This document shows, one piece after another, positions 3,001 through 62,529 of a stretch of 64,000 bases of DNA. How positions within the stretch are numbered: the stretch's first letter is position 1; each line of letters begins with the position of its first letter. The notes beneath the pieces are model-generated. The model was given only the letters and a program-made list of their open reading frames with translations, searched no databases and had not been told where the DNA came from. The stretch is taken from assembly GCA_035549195.1 (NCBI GenBank), contig DASZRK010000017.1:384177-448176 (forward strand), read 5' to 3'. Source of the DNA: a bacterium (GTDB taxonomy: Bacteria; Oederibacteriota; Muellerivitia; Muellerivitales; Muellerivitaceae). Made by a program: the position numbers and the translations under genes.

Positions 3001-3858
3001 GCTGTGTCGGGCTCTCTGCCTGTTTCCTTCTATATTTTGGACGTCAACGGGACCCCCGTGACCCTTCCTGCCAGCCAGACCTGGTACCTGGACAGTGGGC
3101 TTACGGACCCTGCGACGGTTACGGTTTCCCTGACCGTCATAGATGCCAGCGGTCAGCAGTCGGCGGACCACAGCGTGACCCTAGCCGGGGCCGCCCCGGC
3201 CATCACAGACCCGAACAACATCAATCCGCCTACGGGGCTTACCGCCACGGCTCTGAGCACTTCCAGCGTTCAATTGGTCTGGACGGTCCCCAACGACCTG
3301 GGTTATCCGGTGACCGCCTTCAATGTCTACCGGTCAAGTTCCTTCCAGACCACCTTTGGATCGCCCCTGACCCAGGTGGCCAGTCCGCCCAGCGCCTTGG
3401 GTCCCGTGACGACTTTCACCGACGCAGGGTTGGCTCCCAGTACCACTTATTACTATGTGGTCCAGGCCGTTTATGGATTGGTCCCGTCGGGAGCGGCCTC
3501 AAATACGAGCCCCAATTCGAACCATGCTTCCGTCACGACCAATACGCCCGCGTCGGGACCACCGCCGGTCACGACCGGTGTGATGGCTTTCGACGCCAAC
3601 GTGGTCCTGCCCAACACCGGGCAGACCTTGGGGATCTACTTCATCGCGCCCCAAAGCGGGCCCGTCGAATTGGATATCTATAATATTTCGGGCAATCCCA
3701 TCCGGGCCCTTTACGCCACCGCCGTGGCCGGGACCCAGGTGAACCTAAGCTGGGATGCGAAGGACCGTAATGGCCGAACGGTCGCTTCCGGCCTTTACCT
3801 CATCGAGATCAAGGGCCCGGGCATCCACCTGGTACGGAAAGTGATCGTGGTGAAGTGA
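1..3858 (+). CDS. giant secreted surface protein of tandem fibronectin type III-like repeats with C-terminal T9SS/FlgD-Ig-type sorting domain; 5' end lies outside the window
   Basis: The 1281-aa ORF stays open to position 1 in frame. It shows repeated about 90-aa units with W/Y-x-A/T...Y-x-Y-x-V-x-A-x-N Fn3 signatures and is Thr/Ser/Val-rich. The C-terminal 60 aa (IYNISGNPIRALY...WDAKDRNGRTVASGLYLIEIKG...KVIVVK) match the type-A CTD / FlgD-Ig pattern. Confidence 0.7.
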   Translation, partial: QSFAVTVQQTGVSFNVNLAWDATVNSSNANVTNYNLSRGVTSTSLSFFASVTFSFAPPYTDPQPLSSAGTTLFYGIRGLDPGGLGTRPVTGIQLPPNPPTGVSAAPTTSNVTVNWTARPASEKVSQYTIYRINLAGPTTTVAGSAVSTVNSFTDSTGLSRGATYVYYVTATNPGGGPGIPGGESLASSSVTTGLTPLIPAGLIVSGINTSNDITVSWSSVTVTSQDPNATGVNLLVNTTNSSSTAVTTSLAASAVSQVLAGQSAGTTFFYWLQTVNPFGSGALTSPVSQLTYPGAPVLGPVALANDGVSRIFNWTAPVPSGSVTQYLIYREIQGSGNWINTASFPASVAGSPVTTTTAINPGQVYDYKIVAVNPTGLGPESNIRSFSSLPSAPVSVTAASGIGPSALQVDLAWADPNESAQGVTAYTVYRSSSNASTLSYTALVTVGSGTFNYSDTTVSDVTPYYYLITATNNVPQESFKSTVNAVAVTAYYQPNTPTSPAAVPATGSVTLTWTSAVATSYPVSFYAVSRTANGVTLAPVTVISPATVLNDSGLTNGVTYAYTIRTGDNQGHLSTATAPVTAVPLAPPGAPLSPNVSVGDTQLLLTWNPAVPGTLPIGAYNVYSVTAGPTTTYVGSAPATLNSYLVTGLSNSGVTYTYVVNAVDNSGVTTGVHAGNFTAFSGSPVSAKVNPASDLTLQAGNAQVILNWTDSVTISGAATVVSYRIVQSVGGAAFTTIGTQLPSGATESVTETSLSNGVSYAYFIVAASATTVSANSATVFGVPSAPPTAPATFLAVDGVDQVSLSWSPSPPQGSITISNYVLTQAVLPGAPSALATLGGAVTTYVDNNASNDGQTVVYAVAAVNSNGTLGAFSAPVTGFPYQAFAPTVTSHLSSSTGVTLNFTPAGSPSWPVTEFDILRTVVSTGVSVLIPGGPSSPVTDTTGVLGTLYSYSVVALDNKGHMSAASNAVTDGISNPPTAPATILLTAGSQEVLIDWPASAAVSGSLPVSFYILDVNGTPVTLPASQTWYLDSGLTDPATVTVSLTVIDASGQQSADHSVTLAGAAPAITDPNNINPPTGLTATALSTSSVQLVWTVPNDLGYPVTAFNVYRSSSFQTTFGSPLTQVASPPSALGPVTTFTDAGLAPSTTYYYVVQAVYGLVPSGAASNTSPNSNHASVTTNTPASGPPPVTTGVMAFDANVVLPNTGQTLGIYFIAPQSGPVELDIYNISGNPIRALYATAVAGTQVNLSWDAKDRNGRTVASGLYLIEIKGPGIHLVRKVIVVK

Positions 3859-3995
3859 TGATGAACCACCAAACCGCCAAGCCGCCCAGAAAGGCGATAT
3901 CCCGGGGGATGGATACGATCTCGGATCTAGTCGCGAACCAAGGAACGGTTGTTTTGTCCGTAAAACGGAAAGATCCTTTCTTCCGGTCCTTTTTC

Positions 3996-5807
3996 ATGAA
4001 AGTCGTTCTTGGCGCCTTGGCGTCTTGGCGGTTGATGGTCGTTGATGCCTCCGCCCAGAACCTCACCAGCGGTGCCGATTTCCTCAAGATCGATTCGGGC
4101 GCCCGCAGCCAGGGCATGGGCGGCGCCTTCACGGCGGTCGCCGACGACGTGAACGCGCTCACGTGGAACCCGGCCGGCCTCGCCCTCCTTAAACAGCCCG
4201 AAGTGGGCTATCTGCGCATGATCTACCTGAGCGATATCGGTTATAACTTCGGCGGGGTGGCTTTCCCCATCCAGGCAGGGGAGGACACACTCGGGTTGGG
4301 CGCGGCGGTGGTGAACCTGGGTTCCCCCAGCTTCGACAGTACCCTGGGCCTGGCGCCGGCGGTCTCGGCGGGGGACAACGCCTTCTCCCTTTCCGCGGCC
4401 TACCGGGTGAAGGACATCGTGGCCTTCGGGTTGACGGGCAAGTTCATCCTACGCAACCTGGCGGGTTACAACGCCAGCGCTTTCGGGGGCGACCTGGGCG
4501 TCCTGATCTCCCCCATTCCGCAGTTCCATATCGGCCTCGGGCTCTTCAACCTAGGGACCCAGGTTGAGTTCATTTCCGAGGGGGACCCTTTGCCCCTGAC
4601 CGGCCGTTTGGGGCTCGCCTACAAGGTGTTGGACGAGCCGCACGACAGCTTGACCCTGGCATTGGACAATGCCTATGACCTGAACGCCTCGATGTATTCG
4701 GGTTCGGTGGGAGCCGAGTTCTGGCTGGAGAACGTCTTCGCCCTTCGGGCGGGCTACACCGGCGATGCCTACCAACAGCATTGGACGGCGGGGACCGGCT
4801 TCAGCCTGGACGCCTTCGAGGTGGATTACGCCTACGCGCCCTTGGGCACGGTGGGGGACAGCCATCGCATTTCCCTCATCGTGCGGTTCGGGGCCGAGGG
4901 GGAAAATCTGGCGGCGCCCTTGGGGGCCACGGCCAATCCCGGGGACGGGTTCGTTTCCCTCAACTGGAAACCCGCCCCGTCCGGATCGATCTCGGGTTAC
5001 AACATCTATGTGCGCAAGCCCAACGCCACGAGCCTGGTGCGCGTGACCAAGCATCCCTTGAGCGCCTCGGAGACCAGTGTCAAATTGAGCCATTTGACCA
5101 ATGGCGAGACCTATACCTTCGGGCTGGCTTCGGTGAGCCCGGCGGGCCGCGAAAGCGGCCTGATCACCCTTTCGGCCATGCCCCAGGCCTCCATCGCCTC
5201 GGCGGTCTCCACCCCGCCCCCGGCCGCCCAGCTTTCGGCCCCAACGGGCCTGAAGGCGGTCCTGAACCAGGTCGGGTTCGATATTGTCTGGGATCGGGCC
5301 CTCTCCAGCGAAGTGGCCGGCTACAACCTTTACTTGGCCGATGCCGAGGGCAAACCCGGGAAAAAGTTGAACCCCCAATTGATGGTGGACCCCAAGGTCA
5401 CCCTCAAGAAGGTCGACCCGGACAAGACTTATCGGTTCCTGGTGACCGCCCAGGGCCAAGCGGGCAACGAGAGCCCCGCGGCTCTCCTGACCGTCCTCTA
5501 TAGCGACCTGAAGAAAGCCGCCGAAGCGGCCGCCTTGCCGCCACCGCCCGCCCATCTGATCCTGGAGCCGAAGGGCGCCAAGGTGCGCTTGAGCTGGGAT
5601 AGTGCCGGGGAAGGGATCCAATACAAGGTCTATGTCTCGAAGGACGGGAAGGAATTCCGCCTCCTGACCTCCAAACCCGTGGAAGGCACCTCCGCCACCT
5701 TGGGGCCCTTGAAAGCGGGGCAGTCCTATACCTTTGGGGTGACCTCCGTGAAGGCCGACGGCAAGGAAAGCGAAAAGGTCGTCCAGACCAATTCCGCCAA
5801 TCCCTGA
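3996..5807 (+). CDS. outer-membrane beta-barrel protein, PorV/PorQ/FadL-like N-terminal domain fused to two C-terminal fibronectin-III-like domains
   Basis: The ORF track gives 3855..5807. The likely start is the internal ATG at 3996, giving signal peptide MKVVLGALASWRLMVVDASA|Q with an AxA cleavage site. The N-terminal motif GARSQGMGGAFTAVADDVNALTWNPAGLA and alternating beta-strand pattern fit PorV/FadL-type barrels. The C-terminus carries Fn3-like units (GYNIYVRKPN...GETYTFGLASVSPAG; YKVYVSKDGKEF...SYTFGVTSV). Confidence 0.55.
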   Translation: MKVVLGALASWRLMVVDASAQNLTSGADFLKIDSGARSQGMGGAFTAVADDVNALTWNPAGLALLKQPEVGYLRMIYLSDIGYNFGGVAFPIQAGEDTLGLGAAVVNLGSPSFDSTLGLAPAVSAGDNAFSLSAAYRVKDIVAFGLTGKFILRNLAGYNASAFGGDLGVLISPIPQFHIGLGLFNLGTQVEFISEGDPLPLTGRLGLAYKVLDEPHDSLTLALDNAYDLNASMYSGSVGAEFWLENVFALRAGYTGDAYQQHWTAGTGFSLDAFEVDYAYAPLGTVGDSHRISLIVRFGAEGENLAAPLGATANPGDGFVSLNWKPAPSGSISGYNIYVRKPNATSLVRVTKHPLSASETSVKLSHLTNGETYTFGLASVSPAGRESGLITLSAMPQASIASAVSTPPPAAQLSAPTGLKAVLNQVGFDIVWDRALSSEVAGYNLYLADAEGKPGKKLNPQLMVDPKVTLKKVDPDKTYRFLVTAQGQAGNESPAALLTVLYSDLKKAAEAAALPPPPAHLILEPKGAKVRLSWDSAGEGIQYKVYVSKDGKEFRLLTSKPVEGTSATLGPLKAGQSYTFGVTSVKADGKESEKVVQTNSANP

Positions 5808-6877: not shown

Positions 6878-6980
6878 GGGGTTCCTTTAACGGGGATGAA
6901 AGCCGCGACAATCTAGCACGAAAGGAATTCGAACCCCAGGGGGCACCGAGCGCGCGGAGTAAGGCTTTTTTGATGAAAAC

Positions 6981-13550: not shown

Positions 13551-13566
13551 TGTGAAAGATTTCACA
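13551..13566. promoter_or_regulatory. CRP/FNR-family-type palindromic operator, distal site
   Basis: TGTGAAAGATTTCACA is a perfect TGTGA-N6-TCACA palindrome. Confidence 0.55.
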
Positions 13567-13633: not shown

Positions 13634-13649
13634 TGTGAAATATTTCACA
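13634..13649. promoter_or_regulatory. CRP/FNR-family-type palindromic operator, proximal site overlapping the -35 region of the nuo promoter
   Basis: TGTGAAATATTTCACA is a perfect TGTGA-N6-TCACA palindrome. It is centred about 35 bp upstream of a TATAAT hexamer. Confidence 0.55.
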
Positions 13650-14120: not shown

Positions 14121-14614
14121 AAACATTTCCCGCTTTCACCACCCGCCGTGACGCCGTGGTCGCCTGGGGGCAGAAGAACTCCCTTTGGCCCATGCCCTTC
14201 GGCACCGCCTGTTGCGCCATCGAGTTCATGGGCGTGGTGTCCTCGGTCTTCGACCTGGCCCGCTTCGGGGCCGAACTGGTCCGCTTCTCACCGCGCCAAT
14301 CGGACCTGCTCCTAGTGGCCGGGACCGTCACCTTCAAGCAGGCGCCTATCCTTAAGCAGATCTATGAGCAGATGTGCGAGCCCAAGTGGGTCATCTCCAT
14401 GGGGGTCTGCGCTTCGGCCGGCGGTTTCTATAACAACTACTGCACGGTCCAGGGCATCGATCAGATCATTCCCGTGGACGTCTATATCTCCGGTTGCCCC
14501 CCGCGCCCCGAGGCCATCCTGGACGCGGTGATGAAGCTCCAGCACAAGATCGAGAACCCCAAGACCACGCCGCCCGCACAGTTCCAAGCGAAAGAACCGC
14601 ATTTCAATTATTAA
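14111..14614 (+). CDS. nuoB: NADH-quinone oxidoreductase subunit B
   Basis: CCAIEFM and GCPPRPEA N2-cluster motifs are present. The start is most likely the ATG at 14111, overlapping the nuoA stop; the ORF track gives 14078. Confidence 0.9.
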   Translation: MGVETFPAFTTRRDAVVAWGQKNSLWPMPFGTACCAIEFMGVVSSVFDLARFGAELVRFSPRQSDLLLVAGTVTFKQAPILKQIYEQMCEPKWVISMGVCASAGGFYNNYCTVQGIDQIIPVDVYISGCPPRPEAILDAVMKLQHKIENPKTTPPAQFQAKEPHFNY

Positions 14615-14619
14615 AGGCA

Positions 14620-14655
14620 TTCGAACCACAGAGGGCACAGAGATCACAGAGCAAG
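14620..14655 (+). repeat. intergenic anchor plus triple tandem 9-mer repeat (copy 1, nuoB-nuoC spacer)
   Basis: TTCGAACCAC is followed by CCACAGAGG, GCACAGAGA and TCACAGAGC. Confidence 0.7.
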
Positions 14656-14662
14656 GCAAAAC

Positions 14663-15202: not shown

Positions 15203-15208
15203 GCGGGA

Positions 15209-15241
15209 ATCGAACCACGAAGACACGAAGGGCATAAAGAA
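15209..15241 (+). repeat. intergenic anchor plus tandem 9-mer repeat (copy 2, degenerate, nuoC-nuoD spacer)
   Basis: ATCGAACCAC is followed by CCACGAAGA, CACGAAGGG and CATAAAGAA. Confidence 0.6.
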
Positions 15242-15245
15242 TAGC

Positions 15246-16493
15246 ATGAGCGACTTGGACACAAAAACCTTGCTTCCCAAAACACCGGAAAGCTCCGCCG
15301 GTTTGGAGTCGTCCGAAGGGAAGCGCAAGAAGGACCTGGTCTATGTGAACCTGGGCCCCAGCCACCCGGCCACCCACGGCACTTTGCGGGCCCTCTGCGC
15401 GTTGGACGGCGAAACCATCGTGGCGGCGGTCACCGAAATGGGCTACCTGCACCGGGGTTTCGAGAAGGACTGCGAGGTCCATACCTACCAGCAGGTCATT
15501 CCCTATACCGACCGGCTCAATTACGTGTCGGCCATCATGAACAACGTGGGCTATTGCAAGGCCATGGAGAAGATGCTGGACATCACTATCCCCGAGCGGG
15601 CCATGGCGGTGCGTCTCATCACCTGCGAGCTCAACCGCATCATCGACCACCTGGTCTGCGCGGGGGCGAACCTGGTGGACATCGGGGCCCTGACCAATTT
15701 CTGGTATTCCTTCAACGCCCGCGAGAAGGTCTATGACATCCTCGAGAAGCTCTGCGGGGCGCGGCTTACCTCCAGCTATCTTCGTATCGGCGGCCTGGCC
15801 CGTGACCTTTACCCCTCTTTCGCCGACGACGTGAAGGCCGTCCTCAAGGACATCCGCCACAACACAGGGGAGATCCAGAAGCTCATCGGGAAGAACCGCA
15901 TCTTCCTCGACCGCACGCAGGGCCTCTGCATTGTCCCGAAAGAAATGGCCATCGCTTATGGCTGGACGGGGCCGACGCTCCGGGCGAGCGGGGTCGAGTA
16001 CGACCTGCGCAAGGCCGAACCCTATTACCATTATGAGGACTACAAATTCGACGTGCCGGTGGGCACCACGGGCGATATCTACGACCGCATCTTCGTGCGA
16101 CTCTTGGAGATCGAGGAATCGGCCTCCATCATCGAACAGGCCTTGAAGAAGATCCCCAAGGGCCCCGTCATGACCGACGACAAGCGGGTGGCCCTGCCCC
16201 CGAAACAGCAGACCTACGGCAACATCGAAGGCTTGATGAACCACTTCAAGATCATCATGCACGGCATCCTGCCGCCCGCCGGCGAGGTCTATGACTTCAC
16301 CGAAGCGGCCAACGGGGAACTGGGCTTCTATATCGTTTCCGACGGCGGCAAGAATCCCTACCGGGTGAAGTGCCGACCGCCCTGCTTCATGAATTTCGCC
16401 GCCTTCCACGAGATGATCGAGGGACGGATGGTGGCCGACGCCGTGGCGAACCTGGGATCGATCAACATCATCGCCGGGGAATTGGATAGATAA
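15246..16493 (+). CDS. nuoD: NADH-quinone oxidoreductase subunit D (49-kDa subunit)
   Basis: NLGPSHPATHG and the C-terminal RxxxxxM motif are present in a 415-aa protein. Confidence 0.92.
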   Translation: MSDLDTKTLLPKTPESSAGLESSEGKRKKDLVYVNLGPSHPATHGTLRALCALDGETIVAAVTEMGYLHRGFEKDCEVHTYQQVIPYTDRLNYVSAIMNNVGYCKAMEKMLDITIPERAMAVRLITCELNRIIDHLVCAGANLVDIGALTNFWYSFNAREKVYDILEKLCGARLTSSYLRIGGLARDLYPSFADDVKAVLKDIRHNTGEIQKLIGKNRIFLDRTQGLCIVPKEMAIAYGWTGPTLRASGVEYDLRKAEPYYHYEDYKFDVPVGTTGDIYDRIFVRLLEIEESASIIEQALKKIPKGPVMTDDKRVALPPKQQTYGNIEGLMNHFKIIMHGILPPAGEVYDFTEAANGELGFYIVSDGGKNPYRVKCRPPCFMNFAAFHEMIEGRMVADAVANLGSINIIAGELDR

Positions 16494-16500
16494 AGGCTTT

Positions 16501-16595
16501 ATCGCGAAGATGCGAAGAGGGCGAAATAAGACGTAAGCCAAAGTAGGAATGGAAAATTAAATGATTTTCTTCGCGGACTTCGCTTCTTCGCGGTG
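16501..16595 (+). repeat. inverted pair of tandem GCGAAGA-type 9-mers (nuoD-nuoE spacer), potential about 95-nt hairpin
   Basis: The left arm is CGCGAAGAT GCGAAGAGG GCGAAATAA. The right arm, reverse-complemented, is CCGCGAAGA AGCGAAGTC CGCGAAGAA. Confidence 0.6.
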
Positions 16596-16610
16596 AAAAA
16601 AGAGGATCCG

Positions 16611-17090
16611 ATGCCGGTTCAATTCAAACCTGAGGTCAAACAAGAGTTCGAGGCGATCGCCGCGCGCTATCCCGTGCGCCGGGCCGCGCTTTTGCCCGCC
16701 CTTTGGCTCGCCCAGCGGGAATTCGGCTTCATCTCCACCGACGCCATGCGTGCGGTGGCGGACCTGGTGGGTTGCTCGCCCGCCCAAGTATTGGAAACGG
16801 CCAATTTCTACACCATGTACCAGAAACAGAAACCGGGCAAATACCACCTCCAGGTCTGCCAGACCATCTCCTGCCTCCTGGCTGGGTCCGAGGAGATCAA
16901 GAAGACCATCGAGACGAAGCTTTCCCTGAAGGACGGGGAGACCACCCAGGACGGGCAGTTCAGCTATCAGAGGGTCGAATGCCTGGCCTCCTGCCACACC
17001 GGGCCCTGCATGCGGGTGAACGACGAATACCACGAGAACCTGACGCCGGAAAAGACCGAAAAGCTCATCGATGAACTGAGGAAGAAATAA
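16611..17090 (+). CDS. nuoE: NADH-quinone oxidoreductase subunit E (24-kDa, 2Fe-2S)
   Basis: Start is ATG at 16611 after AGAGGA; the ORF track gives 16593. Cys residues at CQTISC ... CLASC match the thioredoxin-like [2Fe-2S] fold. Confidence 0.88.
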   Translation: MPVQFKPEVKQEFEAIAARYPVRRAALLPALWLAQREFGFISTDAMRAVADLVGCSPAQVLETANFYTMYQKQKPGKYHLQVCQTISCLLAGSEEIKKTIETKLSLKDGETTQDGQFSYQRVECLASCHTGPCMRVNDEYHENLTPEKTEKLIDELRKK

Positions 17091-21295: not shown

Positions 21296-21390
21296 AAGGC
21301 CTGAAGCTTTATTAAAACTGAGGTTGCTTCGTCATTGACGACCGCCTATTCGGCGGTCATTCCTCGCAATGACGGCAAAAAGGTGAGCCG

Positions 21391-21936: not shown

Positions 21937-22076
21937 GAAACAAAGTCCTGGCCGCAAATCAGCGCGAATGAGCGCTGATGAAGGCAAGGAATGGATTAAA
22001 GGCTTAAAGACTTAGGATTTATTTGCGAAGATCTGCGCTCATTTGCGGCAAAAGACTTTGCTTTAAGGTGGATCGG

Positions 22077-51989: not shown

Positions 51990-52020
51990 GAAAACTCCTC
52001 TCGGGTATGGAGTAAAAGCA

Positions 52021-52056
52021 TTTTCACCACCAAGGGCACCAAGTTCACCAAGAAAA
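52021..52056 (+). repeat. intergenic anchor plus triple tandem 9-mer repeat (copy 3, cstA-MFS spacer)
   Basis: TTTTCACCAC is followed by CCACCAAGG, GCACCAAGT and TCACCAAGA. Confidence 0.65.
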
Positions 52057-59210: not shown

Positions 59211-60959
59211 TTAAATCTGGATGATCTTGCGCTTGTGGTCCAGGAAATCCCGGAGCACATATTGGGTCAGCTTCTCGGGGGCGGGGAAGATGAGCCGGCC
59301 CTGGTTGATCTTATGCATGGCCTCCAGGAAATCCCCCTCGCCGAAATAGCCCATATCCACCTCGTTGCCCATCATGAAGGTGTTGATGGTGATGCCCTCG
59401 TCGGTCACGGCCCGGACTTCCCGCAAGGTCCTTTGATAGGTCCGTTCGTTGGGCGGATAGGTGAGGTAAAGATGGGAGCCCTCGTAAAAAGCGGTGGGGG
59501 CGCCGTCGGTGATCAAGAGGATGCTCTTGTTCCTCGTTTCAGCGTTGGCCAAGAGCACCCGGGCTAGTTCCAGGCCCTTCTGCAAGTTGGTGAAATGCTG
59601 GGGGATGGAATCCCGGTCCCGTTGGGTGAGTCCTTTGGAGAAATCGACCCGCATGTTGACCGCGCCGCCCATGATGGAAATGGGCTTGGGGGCGAGCTCG
59701 GGGATGGCCCCCACGGGGATCTGTTTGGCGAAGGTGGAGAAGCACACGAAGTAGAGCTTGTCCTCGGGATATTCGGTGTGGATGAGGGAATCCAGCGCCA
59801 GGGCCAGCTTCTTGGTGTTGTAGAAACGCCCATAGCGGCTCATGGAGCCCGACTGGTCGATCAGCATGACGATGGCCGAGGCCGCGGCGCCCTTGGTCTG
59901 GTGGACCTGGAAATCCCGGCTGTCGATCCTGATGCGGCCGTCCTTCATCCTCTCCGGTGTGCCCATCTGGCGGATGGCGGAATTGAGCAGGCTCCCGGAC
60001 AGGTCCAGCGAGGTCAGGGAATCGCCGAACTCATAGGGGCGGGTGGGGGTCATCTCCACGTTGCCGTCGCCGGTGTAGGTGGCGTGGTGGCGGCCCATCC
60101 CGTCGGTGAAGAGGCGGGAGAAAACCTCCCTTAGGGTCTTCTCGCCGATCTTACGGGCGGCCCCGGGCGTGATCTTATAAATGTCGTTGTCCTCGTCGTA
60201 GTCCACGTCGCCGGTGGCCTGGATGGCTTCGTTGAACTGCTTCTTGAGCTCGTCCCGTTTCGCCTGGAGCGCCTGGGCCGCTTCCTCGCCCAGGATGTCC
60301 TTGAGGGTCTCCGCTTCCATATTGAAGAGATCGCCGTGCTCCAGGGCGTCCTTCAACTGCTGTTCCAACCGGTCCAGGGTCTCCAGGCGTTCCTTCAGGC
60401 GGCGGGACTCCTCGGGGTTCGGGTCCTGTTGGCCGGTGAAGGTGTGTTTTTGGTAAAGGTCCTCCAGCTCGGCCATCTTTTGCCAGAGCAGGTTCAGTTC
60501 TTGGAGCAGGTCCCGGGCGATCTCGGCGTTCTTGTTCTTGAGGCGGGACAACTGCCAGTCCAGGTTGTAGAGCTGGGAAGGGTTTCGGCTGTCCAGGGCC
60601 TCGTCCAGGCGTTTGGCGATGTCCTTATCCTTGAGGCGCGCGACCTGTTGTTCCAGCTCGGCGGATTTGCGGCGGATCTCCTGCTCGAGCCGGTTGAGGA
60701 CGTTGTCCAACCGGTATTTCTCGAGGATCTCTTTCTTCAGGCGCTCGATCTCCTTCAGGTAGCCCTCCACCAGGTCGGTGAGGCCGCTGGTCTTGAGGAA
60801 CTGGTTGTAGGGGATGCCTTTCTCCTGCAGGTGGCGCAGGGCCTCGTCGAAGGTGACGTGGTAGCGCATCATGAGCTCTTTCACCGCGTTCACCAGGTCC
60901 TGCATGGTGAAGGGCGGTTCCTCGGGCTCGTGCCATTCGGAATAGTCGTGGGTTATCAA
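59211..60959 (-). CDS. von Willebrand factor type A (vWA) domain protein with N-terminal coiled-coil region
   Basis: TTG start after AAGGG. About 380 aa rich in heptad-like EK/LQ repeats precede a C-terminal vWA domain carrying the MIDAS motif DQSGSMS ... T ... LITDG. Confidence 0.75.
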   Translation of the reverse strand: MITHDYSEWHEPEEPPFTMQDLVNAVKELMMRYHVTFDEALRHLQEKGIPYNQFLKTSGLTDLVEGYLKEIERLKKEILEKYRLDNVLNRLEQEIRRKSAELEQQVARLKDKDIAKRLDEALDSRNPSQLYNLDWQLSRLKNKNAEIARDLLQELNLLWQKMAELEDLYQKHTFTGQQDPNPEESRRLKERLETLDRLEQQLKDALEHGDLFNMEAETLKDILGEEAAQALQAKRDELKKQFNEAIQATGDVDYDEDNDIYKITPGAARKIGEKTLREVFSRLFTDGMGRHHATYTGDGNVEMTPTRPYEFGDSLTSLDLSGSLLNSAIRQMGTPERMKDGRIRIDSRDFQVHQTKGAAASAIVMLIDQSGSMSRYGRFYNTKKLALALDSLIHTEYPEDKLYFVCFSTFAKQIPVGAIPELAPKPISIMGGAVNMRVDFSKGLTQRDRDSIPQHFTNLQKGLELARVLLANAETRNKSILLITDGAPTAFYEGSHLYLTYPPNERTYQRTLREVRAVTDEGITINTFMMGNEVDMGYFGEGDFLEAMHKINQGRLIFPAPEKLTQYVLRDFLDHKRKIIQI

Positions 60960-60963
60960 GTTA

Positions 60964-61104
60964 AGGCCCTTTCACCACAGAGGGCACAGAGATCGCAGAG
61001 GAAACCATTTTGAGTGAAAGAATTTGATCGTATCGTCCGTTTAGAAAAGGAGTTTGTGAACAAAAGAAGGCCTTTCTCTGTGCTCTCCGTGCTCTCTGTG
61101 GTTA
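60964..61104. repeat. inverted pair of anchor plus triple 9-mer repeats flanking a 70-bp spacer between the ChlI-like ATPase and vWA genes
   Basis: At 60971-61001, TTCACCAC is followed by CCACAGAGG GCACAGAGA TCGCAGAGG. The reverse complement of 61071-61102 is CCACAGAGA GCACGGAGA GCACAGAGA. The two arms match at 22 of 27 positions and the right arm abuts the ATPase stop codon. Confidence 0.7.
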
Positions 61105-62529
61105 GACAGGTTTCTTCTTCGGGGCGGCGGAAGTCTGGTAGTCCATCATCTCCCCCACCTTGTTGCGGGTGAGCTTGCCTGACAAATGCAGGCCTTCCAG
61201 CACGAATTCCACGCAGGAAGCCTGATAGGTCTCGCTCTTGCCCTCGGCCAGGTGCTGGACCGGCTCCCAGATCTGCGGCATCTGGGAGATCATCTTCTTG
61301 TAGTCGCCCGCGGGGGTCAGGTCCGAAACCCGGATGTGCTTCTCACCCGACATGTCGGGGATGGTCAGCTCCAGATGGTCCTTCTCCATGTGCTCCTTGA
61401 AGACGGTCAGGATGGCCTTATCCATGATCTTCTCGAAGACCTGCCGCTCGGTGACGGTCTCTTCCCGGAACGGGTCCAGGTCGATCTTGCCCGCGGAGGA
61501 GGTATAGAGATAGTTCAGGTCCGAGATGCGGGGGACGGCCTCGGCCTCGCCCAAGACCACCGCCCGGCGGCGGGAATTGGCCACCATGGTCTCGAAGTTG
61601 GCGATGGAAAGACGGGCCGAAACCCCCGATTTCTGGTTCACATAGGGGCTCTTACGCGCTTCCATGGTGATCTGCTCGATGATCTCTTCCATAAAGGCGG
61701 GGACCACCAGCTTCGCGTCCCCATCCTTCGGCATGCGGGCTTCCTGATGGATGACCTGAAGGCCCAGTTCCCGGGTCAAGGGGTAGTGGGTCCTGATCTC
61801 GGCCCCGATGCGGTCCTTCAACTGGGTGATGATCTTGCCCGCGCGGGTGTATTCCTCGGGGTTCGCGGTGAAAAGGAGCAACAGGTCCAGGTCGAAGCGG
61901 ATGGGATAACCCCGCACCTGGATGTCGCGTTCTTCCAGGATATTGAAGAGGGCGACCTGCACCAGGTATTCCAGGTCGGGTAGTTCGTTCACGGCGAAGA
62001 TGCCACGGTTCATGCGGGGGATGAGGCCGAAATGGATGGCTTCCTCGCTCGCCAGCGGGTTCCCGGCGGCCACCTTGGCCGGGTCCAGGTCACCGATCAA
62101 GTCGGCGATCTTGGTGCCGGGCGAAAGGCGCTCCCCGTAGCGGGCCTCACGGCCGATCCAGGCGATCTCCAGGTTCTCCCCGTGCTCGGCCAGCTTCTTA
62201 CGGCAGGAGGCGCAGATGGGGTGGTAAGGGTGGTCGTGGATCTCGCATCCCTTCACGACCGGGATCTCCTCGTCCAGGAAGTTCACCAGTGAGCGCATGA
62301 GGCGGCTCTTGGCCTGTCCCTTTTCCCCCAAAAGTACGATGTCGTGGTGGGAAAGGACGGCGTTGATGAGCTGGGGAACGACGGTCTCCTCGAAGCCGTG
62401 GATGCCGGGGAAGAGGGGTTCGCCCTTCTTCAGCTTGGCCAGGAGGTTCGCCTCGATCTCTTCCTTGACCGTGCGGTCGGGGTAGCCGGAGGCGCGGAGT
62501 TCCTTCAAATTAATGGGCTTGGAGGGCAT
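61102..62529 (-). CDS. AAA+ ATPase of the Mg-chelatase ChlI/BchI-like family
   Basis: Walker A is LLGEKGQAKS. A Cys-containing insertion VVKGCEIHDHPYHPICASCRKK mirrors the ChlI insertion. GLIPRMNRGIFAVNELPDL is Walker B and LFTANPEE...LKDRIG is sensor II, both aligning with ChlI blocks. Confidence 0.7.
   Translation of the reverse strand: MPSKPINLKELRASGYPDRTVKEEIEANLLAKLKKGEPLFPGIHGFEETVVPQLINAVLSHHDIVLLGEKGQAKSRLMRSLVNFLDEEIPVVKGCEIHDHPYHPICASCRKKLAEHGENLEIAWIGREARYGERLSPGTKIADLIGDLDPAKVAAGNPLASEEAIHFGLIPRMNRGIFAVNELPDLEYLVQVALFNILEERDIQVRGYPIRFDLDLLLLFTANPEEYTRAGKIITQLKDRIGAEIRTHYPLTRELGLQVIHQEARMPKDGDAKLVVPAFMEEIIEQITMEARKSPYVNQKSGVSARLSIANFETMVANSRRRAVVLGEAEAVPRISDLNYLYTSSAGKIDLDPFREETVTERQVFEKIMDKAILTVFKEHMEKDHLELTIPDMSGEKHIRVSDLTPAGDYKKMISQMPQIWEPVQHLAEGKSETYQASCVEFVLEGLHLSGKLTRNKVGEMMDYQTSAAPKKKPV

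Follow-up and report, generated by a model that had tools for sequence, protein, structure and literature searches.

The DNA considered here, referred to as the window, is a 64,000-nucleotide stretch of contig DASZRK010000017.1 from a bacterium of the Muellerivitaceae. It contains a nuo operon and, in its intergenic spacers, copies of a short dispersed repeat in which a conserved anchor is followed by tandem units of 8 or 9 nucleotides; one anchor with its units is called an arm. A sequence-only reading of this DNA had reported at least five copies (at 14620, 15209, 52021 and 60964, and inverted at 61071) together with variant arms at 16501–16595. All of these are present, but more exist: reading all intergenic spacers and following up a hit from Tandem Repeats Finder (TRF) added a solo arm at 6922–6962 and a third inverted pair at 3862–3895 and 4008–4035. 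The window holds ten arms in total, arranged as three convergent inverted pairs (3862–4035, 16494–16599 and 60963–61110) and four solo arms (starting at 6922, 14614, 15206 and 52015). We propose, with a probability of about 0.6, that these motifs are gene-less pairs and solo arms of an element resembling doublets of repetitive extragenic palindromic (REP) sequences, known as REPINs, and transposable elements of the miniature inverted-repeat type (MITEs), and that its full-length form is a cassette carrying a GxxExxY nuclease gene.

The arms represent a genuine dispersed repeat family that exceeds chance by a wide margin, as had been claimed. A strict triple motif (CAC[ACG][AG]AG..CAC[ACG][AG]AG..C[AG]C[ACG][AG]AG) occurs four times in the window and a looser form six times, compared with no occurrences of either in 100 first-order Markov simulations. 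The 9-nucleotide anchor alone yields only about a two-fold enrichment (17 sites versus 8.7 expected). Arrays with a 9-nucleotide period were called independently by TRF at 14627, 52028 and 61075, and a generic repeat search recovered a direct 41-nucleotide family, D2 (6922, 14614, 52015 and 60963), plus an inverted copy, I2, at 61070. Segments 14626–14652 and 60975–61001, previously described as identical at 26 of 27 positions, agree at 25 of 27.

Copies reside at three sites inside the nuo operon, in agreement with the sequence-only reading. The nuoB–nuoC spacer carries a plus-strand solo arm (14614–14657; AAGGCATTCGAACC ACAGAGGGC ACAGAGATC ACAGAGCAAGGC; nhmmer E-value 7e-7), and the GTG start codon of nuoC (14663) lies 5 nucleotides after the end of this arm and 11 nucleotides after its last 9-mer unit. 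A degenerate plus-strand solo arm occupies the nuoC–nuoD spacer (15206–15240; GGAATCGAACCAC GAAGA CAC GAAGGG CAT AAAG). It matches the loose triple motif, includes one period of 8 nucleotides, and is followed 6 nucleotides past its end by the ATG of nuoD. The nuoD–nuoE spacer contains a pair, with GCGAAG-type units in the plus-strand arm (16494–16530; AGGCTTTATCGCGAAGATGCGAAGAGGGCGAAATAAG) and a minus-strand partner at 16566–16599 (TTTCTTCGCGGACTTCGCTTCTTCGCGGTGAAAA).

Further arms are found elsewhere in the window. The pair at 60963–61110 comprises a plus-strand arm (60963–61003; AAGGCCCTTTCACC ACAGAGGGC ACAGAGATC GCAGAGGAA) and a minus-strand arm of the I2 family (61066–61110; reverse complement TCTAACCAC AGAGAGCAC GGAGAGCAC AGAGAAAGGCC). 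A plus-strand solo arm with CACCAAG units (52015–52055), recovered by TRF, the repeat search and nhmmer, is antisense to the flanking minus-strand genes and has no partner within 300 nucleotides. The degenerate solo arm at 6922–6962 (plus strand; AAGGAATTCGAACC CCAGGGG GCACCGAGC GCGCGGAG TAAGGC), a D2 member at 78% to the reference, is likewise antisense to the minus-strand genes on its flanks. In the pair at 3862–4035, the plus-strand arm (3862–3895; TGAACCAC CAA ACCGC CAAG CCGC CCAG AAAGGC; called by TRF at 3864–3886) begins 4 nucleotides past the TGA (3856–3858) of the upstream gene and has units of the CGC/CAAG type with an 8-nucleotide period. The next open reading frame (ORF) probably starts at ATG 3996 (MKVVLGALASWRLMVV...) and then runs over the minus-strand partner of this arm (4008–4035; reverse complement TCAACCGC CAAG ACGC CAAG GCGC CAAG; loose triple match at 4008). 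Thus, the description of all copies as strictly intergenic stands for those originally listed, but not for the arm at 4008–4035. The region 3996–4040 gives the appearance of an arm recruited into a signal-peptide-like N-terminus that reads MKVVLGALASWRLMVV... from ATG 3996, although the ORF list places the start at GTG 3855 instead.

The sequence-only reading treated these copies as similar solitary motifs, but the arms at 60963/61070, 16494/16566 and 3862/4008 are partners in convergent inverted pairs, which fold as long hairpins. The computed folding energies are −49.2 kcal/mol (z −3.6; −3.59) for the pair at 60963–61110, −39.6 kcal/mol (z −3.1; −3.07) for that at 16494–16599, and −69.2 kcal/mol (z −2.3) for that at 3862–4035. 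Single arms are not self-complementary, as five of them folded as DNA yield minimum free energies of only −0.3 to −4.7 kcal/mol (z +0.74 to −1.96). A search of the window against Rfam gave no matches at the gathering threshold, and sub-threshold hits were limited to miRNA-precursor-like hairpin noise.

The repeat extends far beyond this lineage. One scan of 185,579 GTDB species genomes with the degenerate pattern ACCACNRAGNGCACNRAGNNCRCNRAG, which served as the genome-wide check proposed in the sequence-only reading, returned at least 120 matches, versus a handful expected by chance from base frequencies. The matches listed represent about 20 phyla and include Acidobacteriota, Chloroflexota, Planctomycetota, Verrucomicrobiota, Desulfobacterota, Nitrospirota, Cyanobacteria, Bacteroidota, Firmicutes, Spirochaetota, Thermotogae, Alpha-, Beta- and Gammaproteobacteria, and several candidate phyla, with Labilibaculum, Rhodovibrio, Salinisphaera, Shewanella and Microcoleus among the isolates. 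Viral contigs likewise gave at least 120 matches, and the viral-contig loci examined (1.06 Mb) hold 334 arms, with 60 of 79 adjacent plus/minus pairs separated by 250 nucleotides or less. No recurrent cargo family was seen between arms in the viral contigs, where the ORFs are heterogeneous.

Alignment of 133 copies yields the consensus aaaA..tTT[C/A]-ACCAC-RRAG-RGCAC-RRAG-RACAC-RRAG-AAa, in which a T-rich lead and the anchor TT[C/A]ACC[A/G]C precede two to five tandem 8- or 9-nucleotide units of the form RR-C[A/G]C-NR-AG. Because base composition outside the aligned arms returns to background within about 12 nucleotides, the arm forms a short module, as opposed to the end of some longer element. 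An inverted partner is present within 300 nucleotides on the array side of 71 of 139 strict copies, compared with 2 on the anchor side and none in controls. Pair spacers in this set range from 11 to 241 nucleotides, and about half of the copies are solo. Since partners sit on the array side, the element has the order anchor-array, spacer, array-anchor. This inverted pair is the basic unit and is REPIN- and MITE-like, in contrast to the earlier statement that the motifs are unlike MITE structures.

The units within an arm are unusually uniform. All three unit cores of an array are identical in 73 of 135 arrays (10.8 ± 2.9 expected under independence), and the majority core is common to both arms in 56 of 69 pairs (17 ± 3.4 expected). 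At the centre of the unit, two bases differ freely from copy to copy, also among copies within one genome. Homogeneity within arms may be maintained by slippage-type gain and loss of units.

When positions and strands were tabulated, as had been suggested, copies proved to be mostly intergenic and without strand bias. Relative to co-directional neighbours, 11 solo arms are sense and 10 antisense, and the next start codon lies 22 to 828 nucleotides away. Pairs avoid promoter spacers, with 1 in a divergent, 9 in convergent and 32 in co-directional spacers. Two pair regions (16400–16700 and 60900–61200), which lie between co-transcribed nuo genes, were searched for sigma70-like promoters and for U-tract (Rho-independent) terminators, and neither region exhibits either feature.

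These distributions bear on two functions that the sequence-only reading had offered. The first, that arms are iterated operators for a repeat-reading transcription factor of the OmpR/PhoB type, draws on the invariant CAC and AG in three direct repeats. However, OmpR/PhoB operator arrays have a phasing of about 10–11 bp and lie at promoters, whereas the arms have a period of 8–9 bp and are operon-internal or at gene 3' ends, avoiding divergent promoter spacers. Their orientation is random, no sigma70-like promoter accompanies either tested pair region, the bases in the middle of the unit vary among the copies of a single genome, and the element occurs in some 20 phyla. We therefore regard the operator explanation as hardly credible. 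The second function, that of an mRNA element tied to one strand, conflicts with the absence of any bias in orientation; paired copies would nonetheless inevitably form stems of about 25–30 bp in nuo mRNA.

Comparison with related genomes, another course suggested earlier, reveals filled and empty states at orthologous sites. In 34 related nuo loci (NuoC 57–97% identical; loci carry L numbers), the nuoB–nuoC, nuoC–nuoD and nuoD–nuoE spacers are empty (12–26 nucleotides), contain a solo arm, or contain a full pair, and the unit types (CAAG, GGAG, GCGAAG, CACAATG and CACAGGG) are unlike those of the window. For example, a clade comprising L140, L142 and L146 (92–96% NuoC identity) carries an arm of about 40 nucleotides directly after the nuoB stop codon. 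The same site is empty in the sister loci L139 and L141 and in outgroups L138, L143 and L145, which differ by a clean indel of about 40 nucleotides while the remaining spacer is homologous. At the L142/L141 junction, the order is stop codon, 40-nucleotide insert, GT(A)TTTTAAT. Parsimony favours gain of the arm on the branch leading to L140, L142 and L146. Near-identical strains gave no contrast in a search for fresh insertions, because L002–L004 are 100% identical to the window.

Two further features were noted in these spacers. In L146–L148, the L142-type solo arm of the nuoB–nuoC spacer is split by a nested 26-nucleotide insertion with its own small hairpin (CCCTTCGCACCGCAGCGAAGGG), and this appears to be a repeat inserted into a repeat. 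In addition, the sequence just inside the array is conserved between the window (16520–16545) and the spacers of L126, L128, L130, L144 and L157 (AG-TAAGACG-AAAAG / GGCGTAAAAG). Local subfamilies whose similarity reaches into the loop thus appear to exist in the lineage of the window.

Heptamer arrays (CAGTCNA x4; AGCTAAC-type x4) occur in place of 9-mer arms in the nuoB–nuoC spacers of L131, L132 and L127 and in the nuoC–nuoD spacer of L134, and they resemble the short tandemly repeated repetitive (STRR) sequences of cyanobacteria. Such arrays invite an explanation in which the arms are simple-sequence repeats of the STRR/TAACTGA type, made by slippage, converging in situ, immobile, and without any link to a nuclease. 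Unit numbers of 2 to 5, the coexistence of 8- and 9-nucleotide periods, the homogeneity of units within arrays, and the presence of the CAGTCNA and AGCTAAC 7-mers in the same spacers of relatives are all in keeping with it. Patchy heptamer repeats that cross phyla are also documented, namely the TAACTGA direct repeats of Beggiatoaceae, Cyanobacteria and Bacteroidetes (MacGregor 2015; PMC4679880). Like the arms, those are short tandem intergenic direct repeats (2–6 units) whose patchiness over distant phyla suggests horizontal spread and whose function is unknown. However, they are 7-mers that lack an anchor and do not form inverted pairs, whereas the units described here measure 8–9 nucleotides and follow a conserved non-repeated anchor. 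They also lie mostly just upstream of start codons in sense orientation, in contrast to the 11 sense and 10 antisense solo arms, and no gene associated with them is reported. Slippage creates neither a non-repeated anchor nor a fixed partner polarity (71 versus 2), and it cannot give the clean 40-nucleotide indel that includes the anchor or explain why one gene family is specifically bracketed in 10 of the 11 contexts described below. We consider this explanation improbable.

A master gene was sought without bias by clustering all ORFs of the 120 listed scattered loci. One cluster of small proteins adjoins arms in several unrelated loci, and its members match PF13366 (PDDEXK_3) and TIGR04256 ('GxxExxY protein') with E-values of 1e-24 to 1e-47. 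Searching the same 120 loci with tblastn identified nine GxxExxY genes or fragments in eight loci, and all nine abut arms or are bracketed by them. Spacers form two length groups, in that the longer ones (370–560 nucleotides) contain a complete GxxExxY gene of 123–140 codons for amino acids and the others measure less than 250 nucleotides. The geometry of these cassettes is constant across phyla. In six cassettes, an arm lies 0–9 nucleotides from the ATG, and the stop codon lies 2–14 nucleotides from an arm; in the L104 and L116 cassettes, the arm is 35–108 nucleotides from the ATG.

The linkage was also assessed in reverse, by choosing loci via the GxxExxY protein and inspecting the DNA afterwards. 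Arms were present in 10 of 11 such contexts, seven of which have the gene exactly bracketed or an arm abutting the ATG. For example, an Acidobacteriota genome (CP065000.1) carries the gene between sufD and sufS in the arrangement ...gatcTAACCACAGAGGACACAGAGAGCACAGAGGgcaggaa-ATG[gene]TGA-aa-CCCTCTGTGTGCTCTGTGCTCTCTGTGGTG..., and a restriction-modification locus, L184 and L186 exhibit arms with CGC units that bracket the gene or abut its ATG. Bracketing is exact in L182, and the gene of cultured Bacteroides finegoldii is bracketed between radA and a gene for an FAD-dependent protein. In Sphingomonas parapaucimobilis, the 5' arm abuts the ATG in a fabD–fabG spacer, and Bernardetia has degenerate arms on both sides. 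Gene-less pairs are adjacent to the gene in Gemmatirosa and in L187–L192, and Trichlorobacter lovleyi retains only a degraded remnant.

Several loci are informative about how forms of the element may be related. L187–L192 encode an identical GxxExxY protein (P0112), and the gene is flanked by tandem clusters of gene-less pairs with a 116-nucleotide period. The end of the host gene upstream lies at 559, 327 or 443 depending on the sample, corresponding to one to three pair units, which indicates a probable recent expansion or contraction of these units. The copy number of pairs has thus changed between near-identical strains. The 103-nucleotide spacer of L111, read from a GTG right after the 5' arm, gives (V)DFDDVSSQVFGCVNEVHR-LHNSR-LKNGIQRFLL*. 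Because this encodes the GxxExxY N-terminus fused to the C-terminus, L111 derives from the gene by internal deletion. In L072, an arm and a gene fragment of 44 amino acids make up a decayed cassette.

L104 (1401–3375) contains two arm-bracketed GxxExxY cassettes 1.4 kb apart that flank an ORF of 278 amino acids. The two proteins are about 80% identical by eye, suggesting that the cassettes may have arisen by duplication within the genome.

The associated protein matches PF13366 with an E-value of 1e-46, and the family comprises 24,158 representatives of clusters formed at 50% identity (E ≤ 1e-3). The catalytic residues E27, D67, E77 and K79 (E...D...ExK) are invariant in 32 homologues. An AlphaFold2 (AF2) model with a mean confidence score (pLDDT) of 94.3 has a predicted alpha-beta-beta-beta-alpha-beta core topology. 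Foldseek neighbours of the model are weak but are all PD-(D/E)XK nucleases, including tRNA-splicing endonuclease, the AddAB/AdnAB nuclease domains, lambda exonuclease, Cas4, Hjc and XisH. From its conserved residues and predicted fold, the protein is assigned as a single-domain member of the PD-(D/E)XK nuclease superfamily. No solved structure was found by sequence search. The protein is not a PADLOC defence family or a PHROG, with only a weak match to the Cas4 core, and its gene is absent from 50,697 phage genomes and present on only 8 of 72,556 plasmids. Steczkiewicz et al. listed PDDEXK_3 as a family of unknown function in 'Prokaryota & Viruses' with 'multiple transfers, mixed clades' (PMC3424549), and this mixed-clade phylogeny matches the spread of the arm across phyla.

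Some members of 275–295 amino acids (P0122, P0123 and P0125) have two tandem GxxExxY domains. The tail of P0125 (...SSVVSSVSS) has the look of an arm translated by read-through. The two-domain proteins were also inspected for a linker of such an origin, and none was evident.

Both the REPIN system, mobilised by REP-associated tyrosine transposases (RAYTs), and the MITEs of insertion sequences (ISs) share features with this element. As with REPINs, the repeats are short, abundant, intergenic inverted doublets around a short spacer, accompanied by singlets and clusters; a small single-domain gene of the nuclease type is itself flanked by repeats; and copies are tolerated within operons and at gene 3' ends. 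These likenesses, including the avoidance of promoter spacers and the variable-copy clusters, could be taken to mean that the arms are a REP/REPIN family mobilised by a RAYT, or by a TIRYT, as Acidobacteria have TIRYT genes flanked by families of terminal inverted repeats (TIRs; PMC3733652). That explanation was disfavoured already and is very improbable. A REP unit is an imperfect palindrome, but a single arm here is a tandem array without self-folding (z +0.74 to −1.96). By definition, REPs bear a conserved GTAG (or CGTC) tag at one end (PMC3733652), whereas the 133 aligned copies end in TT[C/A]ACCAC with neither tag and no GGGGWSAS motif. RAYTs are Y1/HUH transposases, whereas the only recurrent small neighbour in the arm loci, which were scanned in place of whole genomes, encodes a PD-(D/E)XK nuclease (GxxExxY), often in multiple copies. 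Finally, REP sequences are lineage-specific, and the arm sequence is common to phyla.

The comparison with MITEs is similarly mixed. Terminal inverted repeats surround a short non-coding core in the three window pairs and in the viral pairs, and there is a longer gene-carrying relative with the same ends as well as one internal-deletion derivative (L111). However, no target-site duplication is visible at the one resolved junction, no recognised transposase is encoded by the parent, tandem 8/9-mers make up the TIRs, and solo arms are as common as pairs. The possibility that the copies are fragments of one known IS or MITE, raised in the sequence-only reading, is therefore borne out only in that they are MITE-like relatives of a gene-carrying cassette; the cassette is not a known IS. 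REPIN-RAYT systems, IS-derived MITEs, TIRYT-flanking TIRs and heptamer repeats each have defining features that the element lacks. Intervening sequences of 23S rRNA also place a small ORF within long inverted repeats and form a stem in the transcript of the host operon. They differ in ORF family and host sites and, to our knowledge, have no tandem-repeat arms.

In the element as we propose it, two convergent arms lie with the anchors outside. In its full-length form, of about 0.45–0.65 kb, the arms tightly bracket a nuclease gene of 123–140 amino acids, wedged between operon genes. Gene-less pairs (spacer 11–250 nucleotides) and solo arms are far more numerous and scattered in intergenic spacers, and the three pairs and four solo arms of the window are gene-less forms only. 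The architecture and its polarity, the occurrence across phyla, the linkage to the nuclease gene, the filled and empty orthologous sites, the deletion derivative L111 and the changes in pair number are all observed. The arms may be cis-acting ends on which the nuclease acts, with gene-less pairs propagated or maintained in trans, by analogy with REPINs and RAYTs or with MITEs and their parent IS. Pairs in nuo mRNA, folded to the stems noted above, may be processed or may stabilise upstream RNA, although such effects would be side effects and not the reason for their existence. The solo arms are perhaps inert remnants that now form the immediate 5' leaders of nuoC and nuoD. The structural classification, in which each motif belongs as one arm to an inverted-repeat element that spans phyla and is linked to GxxExxY genes, is much more secure than the proposal as a whole, to which the probability given above applies.

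A number of observations weigh against this proposal. The 64-kb window, 175 kb of related nuo loci and the 1.06 Mb of viral-contig loci with their 334 arms all contain no GxxExxY gene, and so arms can persist far from any copy of the nuclease. A recognisable gene remnant is present in only 1 of 72 short spacers (L111). In the protein-first contexts derived from contigs, every protein shares 64% identity or more with a single seed protein, and more distant family members are sampled only by four plasmid matches (37–60% identity). Among the contexts examined, no identical cassette occurs at two different loci, and consequently nothing points directly to recent transposition of the form with the gene. 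At the filled L142/empty L141 junction, the one junction resolved, there is no target-site duplication of 2 nucleotides or more. We know of no biochemical activity for GxxExxY proteins. Moreover, the static data fit arms that are cassette ends and arms that are pre-existing target hairpins alike.

This last point corresponds to an alternative in which selection maintains the arms as host-beneficial punctuation hairpins (RNase III sites, blocks to 3' exonucleases or structural sites in DNA). GxxExxY would then be an independent selfish gene that lodges preferentially in their loops and uses the arms as its target. The strong folding of pairs (−39.6, −49.2 and −69.2 kcal/mol; z −3.1, −3.6 and −2.3), their location within conserved operons (nuo, suf and fab), and the vast excess of arms over genes, including the 334 viral-locus arms without any such gene, are what this alternative would predict, and covariation between partner arms is expected if pairing is selected. 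Nevertheless, half of the copies are solo and unable to fold, and orthologous spacers are often empty in close relatives, which implies that no conserved function is needed at each site. Selection on stems explains neither the conservation of anchor and unit across phyla nor homogeneity within arms. The constancy of cassette geometry across phyla and the derivation of a pair by gene deletion in L111 also argue against it. We judge this alternative unlikely.

A broader version of the element proposal is that GxxExxY genes and tandem-9-mer arms together constitute a new cross-phylum minimal mobile element of about 0.5 kb. Its sole enzyme would be a PD-(D/E)XK nuclease of about 125 amino acids with specificity for the arms, perhaps in hairpin or cruciform shape. 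The element would have populated operon spacers with hundreds of gene-less, REPIN-like copies per genome in Acidobacteriota, Chloroflexota, the Planctomycetes-Verrucomicrobia-Chlamydiae (PVC) group, Bacteroidota and Proteobacteria, and in the viruses of these groups. We hold this version tentatively, and somewhat more doubt than confidence attaches to it. If it is true, a large orphan family (24,158 representatives) annotated only by a motif name gains a testable role. If the link is functional, it would also account for a pervasive cause of broken contigs and of spurious small ORFs in metagenome assemblies, and would offer a new candidate system that recognises DNA by its sequence or structure. 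Textbook small dispersed repeats (REP/REPIN-RAYT and IS-derived MITEs) rely on known transposases and are largely lineage-specific, whereas here the same lifestyle, with inverted doublets, solo copies and clusters within operon spacers, is linked to a minimal PD-(D/E)XK nuclease and to an arm common to about 20 phyla. The conspicuous motifs within the nuo operon of the window should not be annotated as regulatory sites.

The description of the family as previously unrecognised agrees with the searchable literature, in which no published account was found. Searches of 8 million full texts gave no description of the element by sequence or by concept, including in a 2024 MITE review, although most subscription journals and database family notes were outside their scope and an earlier mention is possible. 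The core strings likewise gave no relevant match in full-text literature, where the matches were to eukaryotic connexin primers.

Three ideas about the origin or constraints of the arm were set aside. Several cassettes have a stop codon within the anchor, but this does not hold across copies and was rejected as a general rule. A coding origin of the 9-nucleotide (three-codon) period was rejected because the frame, counted from the upstream stop codon, is not the same in the nuoB–nuoC and nuoC–nuoD spacers, and no frame is open consistently. A tRNA T-loop origin of TTCGAACC was rejected because, by inspection, its flanks form no T-stem and the family anchor is mostly TTCACC or TTAACC.

Other repeats share the nuo spacers. 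In L125 (nuoB–nuoC) and L134 (nuoD–nuoE), a different hairpin repeat (GTCATTCTGAGG...GAAGAATC...GATCCTTCGC...CTCAGGATGAC) occupies orthologous spacers and looks like another widespread palindromic element. In the window, the nuoH–nuoI (21296–21390) and nuoI–nuoJ (21937–22022) spacers contain hairpins unrelated to the arms (GTCATTGACGACCGCC...GGCGGTCATTCCTCGCAATGAC; ATCAGCGCGAATGAGCGCTGAT) together with one short tandem array (TTAAAGGC TTAAAGAC TTAGG), and therefore several repeat types populate this operon. The 279-nucleotide spacer upstream of nuoA contains two perfect TGTGA-N6-TCACA palindromes 83 bp apart, at 13551–13566 (cTTGTGAAAGATTTCACAtc) and 13634–13649 (tTTGTGAAATATTTCACAtt). This is the operator consensus of the CRP/FNR family, and the two palindromes are candidate regulator sites for the nuo operon.

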